Part shown: positions 18,893-27,297 of the stretch, in pieces | Layout: each line of letters begins with the position of its first letter | Numbering within the stretch: the first letter of the stretch is position 1 | Source of the DNA: Wickerhamiella versatilis | Taxonomy: Eukaryota | Reading direction: 5' to 3' | NCBI GenBank assembly: GCA_030867685.1 | Contig: JAQOWU010000001.1 | Location: 186,001-250,000, forward strand | Length of the DNA stretch: 64,000 bases | Program-made: the position numbers and the translations under genes | The notes under the pieces: model-generated | What the model saw: the letters and a program-made list of their open reading frames with translations, nothing else | Databases searched by the model: none | What the model was told of the DNA's origin: nothing

Positions 18893-20377
18893 TCATAGAT
18901 GCAAGAAATCGGCATACTGTTGCGGGTCCAGCATGTCTCGCAGGACTTGAGTAGCCTGTTGACGGGTAGACTCCAAATATTCATCATCATTGCTCTGCGC
19001 CACTGATGCCATGCACACCAAAAGCTCGTCCGGGTTTGACATAGTCAACTGAGGCAACATAGACCATAGGAAAAGTACACATTCTGAAACAAGCGTCTTG
19101 TGGGCCGGTGATGCGATTGCATTGACTTCGTAGACCAATGTCCTAGTGACAGCAGCCTGTGCAGTAGGAGATGTCGGCTTCAGGGCCTGAACGAAACGTA
19201 CACTCACAGAACGCAACTCATAAAAGTCACATAGGGCCAAGTGGTCACAGAAGGAATTATTTAGAACACCAGGGGGGAGCTGAAAATATGAAGGATACGA
19301 AGTATCCAATGTCGCAGCATTAAGTGGCTTTTCATCCCAAAGGCCACCAAATAGCATCTCTATAGATGGCTTGGGCGGGTACTCTGGAAACAACTGGCTC
19401 TCTGGCAGGCCACGAGGAGGGATATACCCGCAGCCAGCAAGCGCTATCATAATCTCTGCCGCTCGCACCACGATGGAGGGAACATGTGACATGAGGGCAG
19501 CTTGAATCGTTTCAACTGGGATATCATATTCAACGTCGAGGCACATCAACAGATCAAGCGCACAAAGTAGGCAGCTGAGAAGGTAACACGGGATTCGCGG
19601 AACTAGGTCATTAGGTCCCAATGTCGATGGTAAAGGAGTGAGTTCGCCTAGCCACTCACCCACTTTCCGCCACAAGCGGACTGCAGTGCTTTCGCTGGGC
19701 ACACAATGAGGCATCAGCACCCCTACAAGATCTAATGCCAAGATTCCAATGTCCAAAGGTTTCTCTAATAAATCTAATGCTGCTGCAAGAGCACCATCAG
19801 ACGTATCCGCATCTCCTATCGTCAAACCCTCTCCTTTTCGATATAGTTGCTCGAGGGTGGGTTCTGAATTCTCTTGTATACGATGCCGTAAAATATCAGC
19901 GCGCCAAGTCTCTGTATGCTCCTCATGATGCGCCTGTAATTGTGGGGATGGTGAGGGTGTCGGTGACACTACTGCTCGCCGGCGAGGTAAAGCTACTCGG
20001 TTGACAACAAATCCATCACCACCTCTATTTATATTTTTTCGCTGGGTATGGCCTGCCGGAGTCGACGCATCGGTGGGCCTGGGTAAAGCAGGTTTGATTC
20101 GGTCAGCTTTGGATGCGGCTGTAGCAAATTCAGAACGGCTTTGAGATTCGAGCAGCTGCCGCTTGAGCTGATTGACTTCTTTTTCAAGGTCTGATCGACG
20201 AGCAGTCTGCTGCTTAAGAAGTTCTGAGATTTCCTCTTGATGCTTTGAATTGCGATTGGCTAGTTGGGACCGTAAGATTGCATTCTCTCCGCGGATGCTA
20301 AGCTCTCTATCTTTATCAGATGGCTGCTGTGATGCTTCAAAAGCATCGAAAAGCGCCTCGTCCAGGTCACTGCTCAT
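18893..20377 (-). CDS. Probable ATR-interacting checkpoint protein (Ddc2/Lcd1/Rad26/ATRIP-like)
   Basis: Acidic N-terminus [14 protein letters not shown], coiled coil beginning [11 protein letters not shown], helical C-terminal region. Confidence 0.5.
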
Positions 20378-20444
20378 CGGTCATTGGGATTTATTCCAAT
20401 CGCCAGCGGTTAGTAATAGCAGATCACTGGTGAAATTCTTCACC

Positions 20445-21161
20445 ATGGTTAAGGATGATCCTAATGCTGTTCCAGGCATTCCATCAGCACCTAAACCATT
20501 AACTTCAAAAGATAAGGATACTACAAGGTTGATTGTGGTGTTGAGTGAGGCATGTATTGAGTCGTACAAAATTCACTCAAGTTCTGGTGAAAGATATGCA
20601 CTGCTGAACTGTGATGACCATCAAGGGATTCTGAAGAAAATGGGGCGCGATATTAGTGACGTGCGTCCGGATATAACGCACCAATGCTTGCTCACTCTTC
20701 TGGACTCCCCCATTAACAAGGCAGGGAAACTTCAGGTTTATATTTCAACTAGCCGTGGTGTGCTCATCGAGGTTAACCCAGCCGTCCGCATTCCTCGCAC
20801 ATTCAAAAGATTTAGCGGCCTAATGGTGCAACTTCTTCACAAGTTGAGTATACGATCAGTAAACAGCGAGGAGAAGCTTCTTAAGGTAATAAAGAATCCC
20901 ATCACCCAGCATCTCCCGACAAAATGTCGAAAAGTGACCCTTTCATTTGATGCACCGGTCATCCGCGTCCAGGATTATGTGAATAAACTGGAATCAGACG
21001 AATCGGTCTGTCTTTTTGTTGGTGCCATTGCTCGCGGAAAAGATGATTTTGCTGATGAGTTTGTCGATGAGAAAATTGGTGTCTCTCAATATCCCCTTTC
21101 TGCATCAGTTGCCTGCTCGAAGTTTTGCCACGGCTGTGAGGACGCATGGGGAATCATGTGA
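20445..21161 (+). CDS. EMG1: 18S rRNA pseudouridine methyltransferase Emg1/Nep1
   Basis: [50 protein letters not shown]; first ATG at 20445. Confidence 0.96.
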
Positions 21162-22141
21162 GGTCCAGATAAGGTTGCACCCCACCATATGTCACCACTC
21201 CACCTAGTCCTCTTGGGATGTGCATCGGCGTTGTTCGACAGAGTAAGGATAGGCGGTGTCCGTAGGCAGGAGGTTGAAATGAATGACCCAGAAAACGAAG
21301 GCGCCAACCCCGTTTATGCATCTAGGGAACCCTGAAGGATGGTAGTACGAAGTTGTCAATGGATGGATGTGTGAATGAGAGGATGGCCTGTCTGGCTGTT
21401 AGCACAGACGTCCACGAAGGTGTAGCTGGCTAATATTGTTGCCGGAGGCCTTAAATACAGAAGCTGAAAGGCAAGTAGAGCATTGTAATTGTCTGGGGCT
21501 ACTTGTTATGTTTTTTAACCAAGTCCTGGAGGCCTCATGAGACACCCAGATCCCACTTTTCCATATTAAAAAAAGTAATAGGTGCAGCATTAATTAATTT
21601 TAAAATATGGTTCTAACAATTGTGCAAAAACCGCCATAAGGCGATTTCCCGGACCACAGGCTGGGATGGCAGCATGTAGCATCGCGCGTTTCGGCTGCGG
21701 AATATTCCCGAAGCTCCGAACAACTAATGGATTACAAACCAACACTATTCTTACGAAAATATTACGTGTTGTAAAAAGACAAAGACTAAGAGTCACGATA
21801 CTAAGCACATGGCCATGTTTAACAACATCGCTAGAGGCCAAGGCGTGATTTGAATATAATAGGGGAAATAACTTCTAAGGTTACCTAGGGGGCTGGATTT
21901 TGCCACCCTGTCCTTACCCCTCACCTGACAAATACCCCTACCCTCGTTGCCCTGGGAAACTAAGACCTCCCCAATCACAGTCGAACAACGCCACACCGCC
22001 AGTAGTGACGCAGAGTTCCACCAGAAGCAGCAGCACCCGCCACAACCTGGAGCATCTGTGTTATCTGTTGATCTTAAGGCGCCACTTAGTCTGCTCAGAC
22101 CTCACCTCGAACCGTATTTCGCCGTGGGTCCCCATTTGGTT

Positions 22142-22852
22142 ATGCACTCGACGCTGATTGGCCAAAGCCCTGTGCGCCCTCTGACCGCATTCCGAAATTC
22201 GGCCAAGTCCAAAGAGGCGGCTAGCGACAGTGATGACAGCGATGCTGCACCTCCTAGTGGAGCATTAAAGTTCCTTTCCGGTCGTCCTCGAAAGCGCAGA
22301 CGGGTCTCGCTTGTGCCGACGCCGCAAACGCCCGCCGCCGACTCCTCAGAAAGTGAGCATTCCAGTGCTGCCGCTGAACGACGAGATGCAGCCCGACGCA
22401 GGCGTCGGCACTCACTAGCTGTGCTAGAATTTGATACATCTGCTCGTCAGCGCTGCTTTGACTATTTACTTTCGGCTATAGATGCCATCTGGGCGGAGTA
22501 CTGTGACTCGACCTCCGCGGCGGAGTCACAGCTTTATTTGCCCCAGTCACCAGTATCTGAAGCTAGCAGCGCATCATCAGAGGAAAATGCTGGATCATCT
22601 TCCCACCATGTGGCTATCTCTTCGCAGCCAGAAAGCCAGCGGCTCATGCGAATGAAGCAACGTTTGCTAGATGCAAAATACAAACTCACCGATCTTGCTG
22701 GCAAGTGTGATCCTGATGCATCTTCGCAGTTTTGGAAATACTGGGATGCCCTCAGGTATACACTAGTAGAAATTGTGGATGGCGAGGACGAAGACGAAGC
22801 CACTGATGTATTAGAAGACCTTGAGGCAGGACGATTCTACCCTGTCTACTGA
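22142..22852 (+). CDS. Uncharacterised protein with conserved-looking C-terminal helical domain (possibly S. cerevisiae YBL029W-like)
   Basis: First ATG at 22142 (frame open from 21929). NLS-like RPRKRRR; RQRCFDYLLSAIDAIWAEYCD; FWKYWD...LEDLEAGR. The family link is from memory. Confidence 0.7.
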   Translation: MHSTLIGQSPVRPLTAFRNSAKSKEAASDSDDSDAAPPSGALKFLSGRPRKRRRVSLVPTPQTPAADSSESEHSSAAAERRDAARRRRRHSLAVLEFDTSARQRCFDYLLSAIDAIWAEYCDSTSAAESQLYLPQSPVSEASSASSEENAGSSSHHVAISSQPESQRLMRMKQRLLDAKYKLTDLAGKCDPDASSQFWKYWDALRYTLVEIVDGEDEDEATDVLEDLEAGRFYPVY

Positions 22853-23387
22853 TTCTTTCGTAATGGAGATTCGCACATTTTTTCTTTTTTTCAAACTCTC
22901 CTATGTATATATAACGATTATTTTCTCGGCATATATAAAATATGTAAAAAAAAACCCATAAAATTTCTTAAATTCCAGATAGCTTGGGCTGCAGATCAAT
23001 GCACCATTGGCAATGGCGCCCTGTAATAGAGTCTGGCGACAGATTCTGGCGACAAAGCAAAGTGATGAATTCAATCCAAAAAGAGCCCATTTTTTTCAAG
23101 AGAAAAATGAATGCTATCTTGCATTGCCCTTCATGTGCCAGGTTCACCCTTGGGTAAGGGATAATTTTAGCGTTTGGCGCAAGAGACCGAAGCCACTGAT
23201 ATTAAATGATATCGTTCGAAAAGCTGGGGGTATATTAGATTAATCCCCCAAATAATTTTCTTAACCTCCCTCCTGTAATGCCAATTATCGGTCAAGAATA
23301 AACAATATGTGACTAAGTGGAACCACACGGGGTATCTGCAGAGTCGTATATAAGCTTTGCGATGTCCAATAGCGAGTTTAAGGCACA

Positions 23388-23873
23388 ATGGATAAACCTT
23401 TTATACCCCAAGGATTGCTGCAGTCATTAGCAACCGAAAAATATAATGATCCATGGAAGCCCACTCACCGTATGGCTCACCATCCTTCCACAGCCAACTC
23501 CTTAGCCTCCTCCCTTGCCAATGTCACTGCACCAAGTTGGGCAATTGATGAAAATTCATCAGAAGACATGGGTGCCACAACATTTGTGGACGAATTCGAC
23601 GACAAAATGGACCAAGATCCGACACAAGAGCTCAAAATGGAACTGGAAAACCTCGTCCAAGCAATCAGCATAGGAAAGTGCCCCACCATGGAGCGGGCTG
23701 CTGGCATGGAGGCATCACACCGACTGCTGGTAAGATTGAAGGAACTTCGAGAAGAAAATGAGAGACTCGCCAGACTAGCCACCGGCAGTAAAGTCTCTGA
23801 AATGGAGGTAGAGATCGACTTGTTAGTTCAAGAGAATGAGGAGCTGCACCGACAAGCCTCAGCCCAGCATTGA
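23388..23873 (+). CDS. Small Mum2/WTAP-like coiled-coil protein (putative m6A writer subunit)
   Basis: HRLLVRLKELREENERLARLATGSKVSEMEVEIDLLVQENEEL aligns without gaps, by eye, to the WTAP core segment as I recall it. Confidence 0.55.
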   Translation: MDKPFIPQGLLQSLATEKYNDPWKPTHRMAHHPSTANSLASSLANVTAPSWAIDENSSEDMGATTFVDEFDDKMDQDPTQELKMELENLVQAISIGKCPTMERAAGMEASHRLLVRLKELREENERLARLATGSKVSEMEVEIDLLVQENEELHRQASAQH

Positions 23874-24007
23874 TCAATTTCACGCAATTAACATTTATCA
23901 AATATTACTTCTATATTAGTGCATAAACATGGATAAGGATAGGGAGAAACCCTCGAGAGGGTTATACAAAATGACCGTAACCTTAGCCGCGACTGTTAAA
24001 AAAATGG

Positions 24008-24349
24008 CTAGTCCGCATAATATCTACCCTCTTCAAGCTCACCGATCTTGTTCTCTATGGCAATGTCATCGTCGGTATCTTCAACAACGGAAATGATGGA
24101 TTTCTTGTTCCTGTCCCAGTACGTCCAGAAGGTTTTAGCTCGAGCATAACGGGCAGACCCAGCCGCTGTTTCAACCATGGACTGAAGACTCTTGAAGATC
24201 TTGAGCAGATTCTGCTCGTCTTCGGAATCCTGAGATTTCTCGAGCTGCGCAATTGTAGATTCTAAATACTTGTAGCAACGGTTCTGTGCTGCCACATCTC
24301 CAGCGGGCATAAAGCCAGCACTGTAACTGAGATAGTCGTAAAGAGGCAT
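24008..24349 (-). CDS. 113-aa core-only paralog of the 22142-22852 protein
   Basis: Shares the RCxxYL motif and the FWxYWD...acidic...LEEGRYY motif with the upstream gene. Confidence 0.72.
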   Translation of the reverse strand: MPLYDYLSYSAGFMPAGDVAAQNRCYKYLESTIAQLEKSQDSEDEQNLLKIFKSLQSMVETAAGSARYARAKTFWTYWDRNKKSIISVVEDTDDDIAIENKIGELEEGRYYAD

Positions 24350-24809
24350 AGTTGAACTGGATTACAAATCTGCATTACTGTTCCTCTTTGACCCAAAATG
24401 GAACTGGTAACTAATCCTTTATCGCTTTAGGCACAAGGCTAACTATTTTACGTATAGCAATTAGTCCTGCTAGGCATAATGCATCATTAAGTTTTAGTCC
24501 CTGTCTCCCTTCCTCACGTGGTAGCAATATAATCAGATACCTTCACTTAGGTTCACTAAAAACCCGGCGATAGCATTCACCCAGCTTGATATCAGTGGTG
24601 AGGGAGCCCCAATTGATGTCAATTAAAGAGAGAGAATGCCAGGGTGATAGCTCTACTTCAAGCTTCATCATTGAGTTTCTACCCTGGGCCCAGGAAATTA
24701 TTTACTATTCATAGACAAATCAAACCTTGTCTGTCGCATTGGTGATATGCAGCAATAACTCTATTTTTATGACGAGACGAATTCTCACCAGAAGTACTAC
24801 TTTGCGTTT

Positions 24810-26276
24810 ATGGACCCCATACATCCCTCGGAAAAAAGTGAGCAAGGTCCTTCCCCCCTCGTTCCAACTGAGTACCCGCCCTCTGGAGAAGCATCAAGTT
24901 CAGATAGGTCAAAAGACCAAGACCAAGAGAGCACTGGCTGGCAACTTCAAATACAAGACTCAGGAGACTCAAATGCGCAGTCACATATAATTGTGGATAT
25001 AGCCCCAATATCAAAGGTAACAAATCTCGCGCATTGCCAAAACCAGCACTTCTATGCTCCAGCCAACTCACAGCTTGACCATATAGGCTCAATGCCATAT
25101 ATCGATTGCAACGCAAAGCCTGCGGATATGGATGCCATGCTAGCACAGATGCAGACATACGGAATTCCGTGTGCGGTGGTATACTCTTCATCCCTCGAGG
25201 GGTGTGCACTAGGACCAAAGCAGGACTGGCTAAAGCAGATGATCCCAAACCTCTTTACCATGGTTACTTCTTCCTCTGCGATACAACTTCTCCAGATACT
25301 CAGGAATCCTAGCCCGAGAGTGGTTACCGCATCAATCACCGGTTCCGACTCAAAGATTGGGCAACCACAAAAAGACAACAACTCTGCACTCATAGCGCTC
25401 TATGTCATTACATCTGTGGTTATTGTTACTCTACTGATCATTCTAACATGTGCGTTCATCAGAGTGAAGCGTCATCCAGAACGGTATAATGGCAGCAATC
25501 CAAATTACGCCAACCGCGCTCGAGGACTAGCCCGGGCAGTACTCGACTCAATTCCATTGGTACAAGTGTCAAAAAACCCAGAGAATGCAGACGAGGAGGC
25601 ACAGAAAAACAATACGAGAGGGACAGAAAATACCATTGTACCGACCTCGCAGCAGGGCTCAGTGATGCAAGGTGTACAGGAGAAGTCAGTTCAAGACCAG
25701 AATGGTACAGCGGCGATAGGAACAGCAACAAATCAGACACTTCAAAACGGCATCACTCACGAAACAGGGCCAGCACTGGCACATGGTCACCCAAGTGAAC
25801 GCCCTAGTGAAGCCAGTCCGAATCAAGCTAATTTGAATGCGAGCCATGACGGAAACAGAAATGAAAGAGGCAAAACACAGCCATTCACTCTTCTTTTGAC
25901 AGACAATGAGGATATTTGTCCGATTTGTTTTGACGAATATGAGGACGGCGATATACTGCGGTTTCTTCCATGTAGACACAAATTCCATGCCAAGTGCATT
26001 GATCCCTGGCTACTAGAAGCCAGTTCAGAGTGCCCTCTTTGCCGAAGAGACTTAGGCCAGAGCTGTAGACCACCTCGACCAAGTCATGAAGGTCATCATA
26101 GGCTAGCAGACTGTGGCTATACATTCCTTTACCGCGCAAAACAATGGAAAACTCGCTTGCATCATCACCATCATCACCACCATAATTATCGTAACCAGAA
26201 CCAATCGTCAATATCTGATTCCAGGCATGAAGACCATACAGATCTTAGTGACGTCTCTACAACACATCATGCTTAA
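24810..26276 (+). CDS. Transmembrane RING-H2 E3 ubiquitin ligase
   Basis: TM helix ALIALYVITSVVIVTLLIILTCAFI, HPERY, RARGLARAVLDSIP, RING-H2 CPICFDEY...PCRHKFHAKCIDPWL...CPLCR. Confidence 0.88.
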   Translation: MDPIHPSEKSEQGPSPLVPTEYPPSGEASSSDRSKDQDQESTGWQLQIQDSGDSNAQSHIIVDIAPISKVTNLAHCQNQHFYAPANSQLDHIGSMPYIDCNAKPADMDAMLAQMQTYGIPCAVVYSSSLEGCALGPKQDWLKQMIPNLFTMVTSSSAIQLLQILRNPSPRVVTASITGSDSKIGQPQKDNNSALIALYVITSVVIVTLLIILTCAFIRVKRHPERYNGSNPNYANRARGLARAVLDSIPLVQVSKNPENADEEAQKNNTRGTENTIVPTSQQGSVMQGVQEKSVQDQNGTAAIGTATNQTLQNGITHETGPALAHGHPSERPSEASPNQANLNASHDGNRNERGKTQPFTLLLTDNEDICPICFDEYEDGDILRFLPCRHKFHAKCIDPWLLEASSECPLCRRDLGQSCRPPRPSHEGHHRLADCGYTFLYRAKQWKTRLHHHHHHHHNYRNQNQSSISDSRHEDHTDLSDVSTTHHA

Positions 26277-26457
26277 ATATTTCCGAATATTACACTGCAT
26301 ATCCCAGGAAATTAAATGTGGGAGAAGAATCCTGATTTTAGAGAGAGCGCTAAAGTCTGAAGAAAAGAAAACAGCTTGTTGCGGGGCAGACAGTTGAGCT
26401 AAAAACTCCATCTATAGTAAAAAGTCATCGAACATAAGATATCCAAACCATTTTGTA

Positions 26458-27297
26458 TTAAAATTCAGGAACAACTACAAATTTAGAGGCAATTTCACCT
26501 AGTCTGAGGGCTTGGCTGCCATTTTTGAGCAGAACAACTTCCTCAACACTGGAAGAGGGTGCCGCTGGAGCAACATCAAAGATGCCTTCACCTATCTTCA
26601 TCGTAACACGACCAGATGCATGTTTTCTTAATGATCCAATACGTCCGTCTTGGAATTTTGTGTCTTTTAGATCGTCATCATCGTTATCATTACTCACTGG
26701 TTGTGATGTCTGAGCTTCGAGTCCTAGCTCAGGAATTTGAAATAGATATAATGAGTTCATATTAATTACGGGAATCTCAGATTCATCGAGCTGTACATCA
26801 TCACGCGGGACACGAAGGGGGAAAAATGGTTCCGCAGCTCTCTCGGGCTCAGCGATGTTTACCTTACTGCCCAATTCTTCTTCTTCCTCTTGCTGGAGAC
26901 CACCGTTTTCCAATTTGATGCGAGGACGACCGTCCGTATTTTCTTCCTTGGGCTGGCGAAGTTTTCTTTCTTTGTCTGAGATGCCTTCAGCTGTATTAAC
27001 TCTTCGAGGCATTCGTGAGGCAGATGGAGCTAGAGAGGGAGCTGCAAGCGGCCCTGCAGCCTCAGCCCTTGTACCGATGTTGCGAGCACCGCCTCGCCCT
27101 CTACGTGGAGGTTGTGGCTGTCGTTTTGCAGGTGCCGGTTCTTTTTCTTCCATTTTTACAGCAGGAGCCGTCTTCTCACGTTCTTCTTTTGACCTCCGCC
27201 CAACGACATTTGGCGCGAACCGAGGCTTCCCTCGAGAGGCTCCACTTAATCCTTGCAATCTCCCTGGTGGGGGCTGCTGTGTCGACGGCGGGGCCAT
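26458..27297 (-). CDS. RPC53: RNA polymerase III subunit C53/RPC4
   Basis: RFAPNVVGRRSKEER, YLFQIP, GRIGSLRKHASGRVTMKIG, LGEIASKFVVVPEF. Confidence 0.88.
   Translation of the reverse strand: MAPPSTQQPPPGRLQGLSGASRGKPRFAPNVVGRRSKEEREKTAPAVKMEEKEPAPAKRQPQPPRRGRGGARNIGTRAEAAGPLAAPSLAPSASRMPRRVNTAEGISDKERKLRQPKEENTDGRPRIKLENGGLQQEEEEELGSKVNIAEPERAAEPFFPLRVPRDDVQLDESEIPVINMNSLYLFQIPELGLEAQTSQPVSNDNDDDDLKDTKFQDGRIGSLRKHASGRVTMKIGEGIFDVAPAAPSSSVEEVVLLKNGSQALRLGEIASKFVVVPEF

Follow-up and report, generated by a model that had tools for sequence, protein, structure and literature searches.

Trans-microProteins, among them the plant pairs ZPR/HD-ZIPIII and KIDARI/HFR1, are described in the available text of PMC9638782 as small, single-domain proteins that arise by duplication and domain loss. 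Gene pairs of this long and core-only kind are already known. Here we describe such a pair in a 64,000-nucleotide stretch of DNA from the yeast Wickerhamiella versatilis (C1:186001-250000 of a 9.88-Mb genome in 8 contigs), which we call the window and whose numbering we use throughout. The pair consists of a long paralog (L; 22142..22852, + strand; 236 amino acids [aa]) and a short one (S; 24008..24349, − strand; 113 aa, 12.9 kDa), with a Mum2/WTAP-like open reading frame (ORF), here the middle gene (23388..23873, + strand; 161 aa), lying between them. An initial annotation made from the sequence had proposed that S is a core-only paralog of L, and the ORFs, lengths, strands, and motifs that it quoted were as it gave them. 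We find that L and S belong to a real domain family that had not been annotated before, in which a core-only paralog is ancient, expressed, and usually adjacent to the long gene. The family and its linkage are the new part: no description of the L/S pair, the S subfamily, or their linkage was found in open-access main texts.

Homology between the long and short proteins

L and S are homologous, as the initial annotation had claimed. BLASTP aligns them at 37% identity over 38 aa (E = 1e-7), confined to a C-terminal block, and their local alignment score of 85 (shuffle mean, 30.7) was reached by 0 of 5,000 shuffles in each of five schemes (three scoring schemes and two local-shuffle controls). 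Among the 691 stop-to-stop frames of the window the two are mutual best nonself matches, with a score of 85 against next best scores of 52 and 41, and across the 9.88-Mb genome each matches only itself and the other. Relatives were gathered separately for a first comparison of profiles (3 for S besides S itself, 56 to 69% identical over their full length, and 13 for L), and these small profiles aligned with a probability of 97.5. HHalign of deep profiles built from 104 long and 24 short proteins covered 121 columns, including both motifs, at 99.3% (E = 2e-20). At E < 1e-3 the S profile matches 113 of the 115 proteins in the long set and the L profile 20 of the 21 short ones, in sets that were partly gathered with one mixed profile. 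At the DNA level, an inverted duplication around L and S is undetectable beyond a sole remaining pair of 17-nt arms at the FW..WD codons.

Membership of the family and age of the duplication

A mixed-profile search over 1.84 billion representative sequences returned 130 matches at E ≤ 0.001, which sort by length and motif into 17 short proteins, 1 odd form of 194 aa, and 112 long proteins or fragments of long ones. The core alignment comprises 131 rows and 93 columns, with 5 rows lacking the motif pattern, 7 fragments, and near-duplicates dropped. Fourteen of the 93 columns are common to both groups at >80% (D..A..RC..Y, FW..WD, E, and LE.GR). The 21 short proteins have 11 invariant columns and form one clade, supported at 0.97 in FastTree and at 99/100 in IQ-TREE (60 of the 131 rows); the trees have no outgroup root, and with only 93 columns most forks other than the S clade are weakly resolved. 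A tree constrained to unite the window L and S with their nearest sisters is worse by 74 log units (26 rows), and a recent lineage-specific duplication is rejected by the approximately unbiased (AU) test (p-AU = 0.0006). This phylogenetic signal indicates that S has a single ancient origin.

Source organisms were checked for 14 of the 21 short proteins, from which four named genomes resulted: Starmerella bacillaris, Magnusiomyces paraingens, and Yarrowia sp. B02 in the Dipodascales, and Tortispora caseinolytica in the Trigonopsidales. The closest named relatives of both window proteins are those of S. bacillaris. The presence of S in both orders indicates that the duplication is older than the split between Trigonopsidomycetes and Dipodascomycetes, some 300 million years ago or more. 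The initial annotation had envisaged an old duplication with both frames intact; both genes are indeed expressed, and the event is older than it supposed. The long form is the more widespread, and from this we infer that the change ran from long to short. The weakest short matches reach E = 1e-4, which is the edge of detection, and later-branching orders may hold S below it.

The long form belongs with proteins such as YALI0E01518p and Zygotorulaspora HG535_0A00290, both of which lie in clusters of profile matches, and the best ESM Atlas look-alike of the L core is the 284-member DEHA2E15730p cluster (score, 0.84), which we regard as a lead only. The names encountered in this family are all "hypothetical" or "uncharacterized," and nothing was found in the literature under five L-family identifiers, three of them guessed. 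By our reading of metagenome loci, L relatives occur also in Candida-, Pichia-, and Hanseniaspora-like yeasts. T. caseinolytica has three consecutive members of the family, ODV90200 to ODV90202 (P0158, P0131, and P0159), which are the odd 194-aa form, a long protein, and a short protein; the odd form (ODV90200) sits on a very long branch.

Predicted fold and what the short protein lacks

L, whose family extends across the Saccharomycotina, combines a disordered N terminus with a helical core. Its predicted helices span residues 75-132, 163-186, 191-213, and 217-227, with a predicted local distance difference test (pLDDT) score of >90 in the core and of 42 to 61 over residues 1 to 70. Those of S span residues 3-10, 16-39, 43-64, 67-90, and 95-105 (pLDDT, 79.5, with only 4 sequences in the alignment). 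The common domain is predicted to be an antiparallel three-helix bundle with a short fourth helix, followed by the LE.GR tail. The conserved core of L (residues 94-233; 22421..22840, + strand) comprises helix 1, a Ser/acidic insert, helices 2 to 4, and this tail, and S comprises the core bundle only, together with an N-terminal G.vP motif of its own.

The low-confidence N-terminal region of L (22142..22420, + strand) carries an acidic run, a basic cluster resembling a nuclear localization signal (NLS), and RRxS-type and SP sites, motifs that would serve in localization and phosphorylation. A [KR]3 cluster is present in 83 of 100 long proteins (shuffle, 27), an RRxS-type site in 70 (shuffle, 26), and an acidic run in 75 (shuffle, 7), against 0 of 24 short proteins in each case, which bears out the earlier view that S lacks the basic, Ser-rich N terminus. 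Doubled SP sites were not enriched in the long proteins (55 versus a shuffle value of 48).

S had also been described as lacking most of the internal linker. What S lacks is more than a linker, since it takes in an invariant helix extension of the L family (D114, W117, C121, and E128). A second set of residues that are invariant or nearly so in L is absent from S (the four just named plus Y120, K172, R174, K179, K205, and Y206), and S is therefore not simply L minus its disordered parts; it has invariant residues of its own at G12, Q22, G64, and Y77. Polar residues invariant in both groups are, in L numbering, D98, R104, C105, D202, E228, and R231. Judging from helix order and, weakly, from covariation, the 14 shared residues probably cluster at one pole of the bundle, formed by the beginning of helix 1, the turn between helices 2 and 3, and the tail. 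The covariation signal (131 rows, noisy, and too shallow for firm contacts) brings the beginning of helix 1 close to that turn and to the C-terminal tail.

The initial annotation's further proposal, that the two proteins delimit an uncharacterized helical domain, agrees with the predicted bundle and with the searches that we made. Pfam assigned no family to L, a single stray match to 1 of 60 long proteins, and scattered subthreshold matches to the 24 short ones; profile searches of PDB sequences gave nothing clear (best E values, 0.74 and 0.38); and Foldseek gave no match at E ≤ 0.001 for the L model or the S model. The best match in a VIA fold search had a Z score of 8.8 for L (root mean square deviation of 2.9 over 90 residues) and of 6.8 for S. 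Generic antiparallel three-helix bundles (de novo 9rgv, the CNOT3 N-terminal domain, and the Hsp70 lid) have a similar overall arrangement of helices, but these scores are within the background for helical bundles, so neither homology nor function follows. The ESM Atlas held no usable match for S. Look-alikes of the L core at scores of 0.77 to 0.78 bear Rrn10 (PF05234), a component of the upstream activating factor with a histone-fold-like fold, on 23 to 24% of their members; this lead was not upheld, as PF05234 matched none of 60 long or 24 short proteins and was not among the fold-search matches. S delimits a conserved yeast domain that lacks a Pfam model or a solved relative, and it offers a 113-residue, linker-free construct for structural work and for partner hunting.

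Transcription, promoters, and constraint

L and S are strongly transcribed, each from its own start site. Summed depth in three raw-read runs of the species was, in order, 478, 211, and 178 for L and 239, 259, and 180 for S (one bin), giving L/S ratios of 2.0, 0.8, and 1.0; both exceed the neighboring EMG1 (181, 53, and 48). The middle gene (11, 4.6, and 9.9) and intergenic sequence (5, 2.6, and 1.7) gave far lower values. The start region of L (21993..22011, + strand) is defined by template-switch adapter ends at 21993 (19 reads, X11) and by read starts at 22005-22011 (X8). That of S (24358..24363, − strand) lies 9 to 14 nt upstream of its ATG, with adapter ends at 24358 in 232 reads (X11) and 151 reads (X13), and depth upstream of it falls to 0 to 1.5 past 24420. 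No introns or read-through joints at the locus were found among the RNA joints listed. An upstream GTG start of L, as in database protein P0007, was set aside; the first ATG downstream of the start site is at 22142.

Four of the window's 52 pentamers of the stress response element type (STRE; AGGGG/CCCCT) sit within 80 nt (21861..21939, either strand), 54 to 132 nt upstream of the L start site. This is the highest count among the upstream regions of 44 ORFs in the window, a pattern noticed after the fact. Across 15 L-orthologue loci, some of them redundant, the upstream regions contain 23 STRE where about 10 would be expected, and 4 of the loci lack the element. Msn2/4 act through STRE in Saccharomyces cerevisiae, and the pentamers lend modest support to Msn2/4-type stress control of L. 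The pentamer is rare across the window as a whole (positions 1-64000), with 52 occurrences against 94 expected; in each of 100 shuffles the count was at least as high.

Six of the eight strain differences listed for S are synonymous, a figure that is indicative only, since strains were pooled; S is also conserved over its full length across genera, which speaks more strongly for selection. The initial annotation had named as grounds for abandoning its reading a nonsignificant alignment or a small ORF that was untranscribed, neutrally evolving, or absent from relatives. None of these applies: the two proteins align significantly, and the ORF is not only transcribed but also conserved and shared with relatives.

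Adjacency of the two genes

Of the 4 named genomes with S, 3 were looked up for L, and in all 3 the accessions of L and S are consecutive: S. bacillaris (GMM50088/GMM50089), Yarrowia sp. B02 (KAG5367014/KAG5367015), and T. caseinolytica (ODV90201/ODV90202). Adjacency in these genomes is read from accession order, which carries no orientation. For four further S/L pairs the longest contigs are of equal size (39874, 28012, 27113, and 9180), an indirect sign of linkage.

The intervening Mum2/WTAP-like gene

Wtap (PF17098) is the top Pfam match of the middle gene (E = 0.0096; 16.3 bits, below the curated cutoff of 35), and a genome-wide family search gave no PF17098 match. Only three PDB sequences matched, all of human WTAP and all weakly (E values, 1.1 to 9.6). 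The resemblance to the WTAP/Mum2 family consists of a 48-residue, gap-free match to the WTAP coiled coil in both Pfam and PDB, but the middle gene differs from that family in falling far under the cutoff, in being short, and in being duplicated in the genome; a WTAP-like working of its product is plausible. Its sequence is unrelated to L and S. A second Mum2/WTAP-like ORF of 98 aa lies at C7:624603-624899 (L023:3104-3400, − strand) and is 33% identical to residues 77 to 156 of the middle gene (E = 7e-7; Wtap, 14.6 bits). Both ORFs may supply WTAP-like subunits that have diverged, or one of them may be in decay.

In a related assembly (contig X1), a 17-nt deletion at 23677 (codon 97) would shift the frame upstream of the WTAP-like coil. 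Reading this gap as an intron was rejected, as it is too short and does not appear in the few raw reads that span it in the three runs (7, 2, and 9). Middle-gene RNA is 18- to 56-fold below that of L and S, and three named genomes have no annotated gene between L and S (consecutive accessions). The initial annotation had speculated about a link between the pair and the gene that it encloses. Given the low RNA, the lack of anything annotated between L and S in the three genomes, the frameshift, and the second copy, that link is not supported, and we treat the middle gene as incidental to the pair and probably a lineage-specific resident.

A microProtein-like reading and its rivals

The size, origin, and expression of S fit the trans-microProtein description in the available text of PMC9638782. 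Like those proteins, S is smaller than 20 kDa and has one predicted helical domain without the extra regions of its larger relative (the median over 24 short proteins is 14.2 kDa). It is a separate gene derived by duplication and domain loss, according to the profiles, the tree, and the AU test, and it has its own transcript, with a depth of 180 to 259 in the three runs (RNA level). We do not file S as a member because the likeness covers these three features only. Binding and inhibition are features of trans-microProteins, whereas S is known here from sequence and RNA, and their retained domain is an interaction domain, whereas that of S has no Pfam, PDB-sequence, or clear fold match. S also differs in that its gene is linked to that of the parent across two yeast classes and in that it has lost part of the parent's conserved core.

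We hypothesize, with a probability of about 0.4, that S acts like a trans-microProtein on L or on a partner of L. An early budding yeast would have duplicated one gene in tandem, and the copies would have become the L and S subfamilies of one undescribed helical-bundle domain. The basic NLS-like cluster, the RRxS and SP sites, and the STRE-rich promoter suggest a nuclear role for L, as an adaptor that acts through its bundle and is switched by nutrient and stress signaling. S would have retained the bundle pole on which the 14 shared residues lie and lost the NLS-like cluster, the phosphosites, and the L-specific invariant residues, a combination for which a trans-microProtein-like role seems the likeliest explanation. 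Present at an RNA level like that of L, it would bind L or a partner and buffer or dampen L, for example by holding L out of the nucleus or by filling a site without an effector surface, with the Mum2-like gene between them a bystander. An elaboration that we consider rather unlikely is a linked two-gene module that forms a fungal microProtein system and predates the separation of the two yeast classes, in which core-only S would bind and gate a nuclear L regulated by protein kinase A and stress. This system would have been kept in the Dipodascales and Trigonopsidales (with three genes in Tortispora), and S would have been dropped in later-branching yeasts.

Several observations weigh against the microProtein-like reading. 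Within one genome, the cores of L and S are only 26 to 33% identical, and the S stem is 2.49 substitutions long (IQ-TREE, 60 rows). The two genes are convergent and have no common promoter, and the S promoter is without STRE. S lies beside L in 0 of 15 metagenome L loci, of which only 6 have at least 6 kb of flank on both sides and most look like loci of Candida-, Pichia-, Hanseniaspora-, or Zygosaccharomyces-type yeasts. In one of them (L008), L is closest to long proteins of basal lineages and still has no adjacent S, so the linkage is not obligatory. Adjacency can also persist neutrally, as microsynteny between Blastobotrys and Yarrowia is 49% in the available text of PMC5499181; because this baseline can be high among basal yeasts, adjacency is only moderate evidence of functional coupling. 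In addition, the 14 shared residues (F, W, W, Y, C, and L among them) may only hold the fold and form no shared binding face. It is quite possible, if still short of even odds, that S acquired a function of its own early after the duplication and no longer has contact with L or its partners, the linkage reflecting slow separation of tandem duplicates. The long stem, the loss of all L-specific invariant residues and the gain of S-specific ones, the convergent genes with different promoters, the baseline microsynteny among some basal yeasts, and L008 all favor such a separation. It fits less well with the adjacency of the genes in two classes, one of them represented by the distant Tortispora, with RNA levels of L and S that are alike in three runs, and with the presence of L in 3 of the 4 named S genomes, the three in which it was looked up.

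Alternatively, the shared pole could give L and S one common biochemical activity, exerted by L in the nucleus under regulation and by S constitutively in the cytosol, or otherwise in different states; mutual binding would then not be needed. The invariant polar residues common to both, the weak, noisy covariation that joins the parts of this pole, and the confinement of NLS-like motifs to L are all consistent with such an arrangement, but neither protein has a clear fold or sequence match to any enzyme, and the L-specific invariant residues outnumber the shared ones, which suggests different jobs; we think it unlikely. A role for both proteins as accessory factors of an N6-methyladenosine (m6A) writer complex, clustered with the Mum2-like gene for that reason, is highly improbable. 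It would draw on the WTAP-like gene between them, the 3 MT-A70 genes of the genome, and a KAR4-like gene near L in 2 of 15 loci (L012 and L022). The low RNA of the middle gene, its absence from the annotation of three genomes, the X1 deletion, and the second ORF on C7 all speak against that role, and the KAR4 proximity fits an old shared block, KRR1-MIC10-SPB1. Finally, the short span of the pairwise BLASTP match might be taken to mean that S is a decaying remnant, or that its similarity to L is chance between acidic helical proteins. We give this almost no credence in view of the full-length relatives of S at 56 to 69% identity, the 11 invariant columns among 21 short proteins, the sharp start site and high depth of S, and the predominance of synonymous strain differences. 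If the microProtein-like reading is true and S binds and tempers L, the pair would represent a fungal instance of microProtein control in which the genes have stayed linked for a very long time; if S does not temper L, it still offers a clean example of an old tandem duplicate maintained by selection, in a new family to annotate.

Gene neighborhood of L and the YBL029W question

At L loci of Saccharomycetales type (L020 and L022), the neighbors of L are KRR1, MIC10 (DUF543), a PEX11-like gene, a peptidase M3 gene (PRD1-like), an MT-A70 gene (KAR4-like), and SPB1. The MT-A70 gene is next downstream of L in L012 (9080-10219, − strand) and two genes off in L022 (12856-13764, + strand), a proximity that fits an old KRR1-MIC10-KAR4-SPB1 block. 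In L010, L011, L012, L014, and L021, L adjoins a cytidylyltransferase-like gene, presumably POF1-like, and in most of these a receptor-L-domain gene, presumably SPS2-like, then follows.

The initial annotation had raised a match between L and S. cerevisiae YBL029W. We take the KRR1-MIC10-PEX11/PRD1-KAR4-SPB1 block to correspond to YCL059C-YCL054W on the left arm of chromosome III, not to the YBL029W region, and the gene order in L020 and L022 is thus at odds with the position of YBL029W. YBL029W is, like L, uncharacterized, Ser-rich, and of a similar length class, but it differs in gene neighborhood and, we presume, lacks the L-family motifs. No S. cerevisiae protein was among the named cluster members. 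YBL029W is therefore doubtful as an L orthologue, and S. cerevisiae may be without L altogether. An activation-domain tile is reported for YBL029W in the accessible part of a preprint (bioRxiv 10.1101/2023.09.12.557247). Literature on YBL029W and YBL029C-A, including PMC4169159, PMC5527849, and one preprint, held nothing on the L/S family in the text available.

Other features of the window

Rfam gave no matches in window positions 20000-27000. A 494-aa protein encoded at 18893-20377 (− strand), between EMG1 and an RFC small-subunit gene, has a weak LCD1/Ddc2 match (E = 0.012) and, judging from this similarity, is probably a very diverged checkpoint subunit. At 24810-26276 (+ strand) lies a gene for a transmembrane RING-H2 protein with a His-rich tail, whose 5′ end has low RNA depth in the runs examined. 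The EMG1 ORF as annotated begins at 20295 and overlaps the opposite-strand gene; its transcript begins at about 20421-20438, which indicates that the real start is a later ATG (MVKDD...). EMG1 RNA runs about 400 nt beyond the stop codon at a similar depth (21161-21600), and this is a long 3′ untranslated region that ends just before the L promoter.

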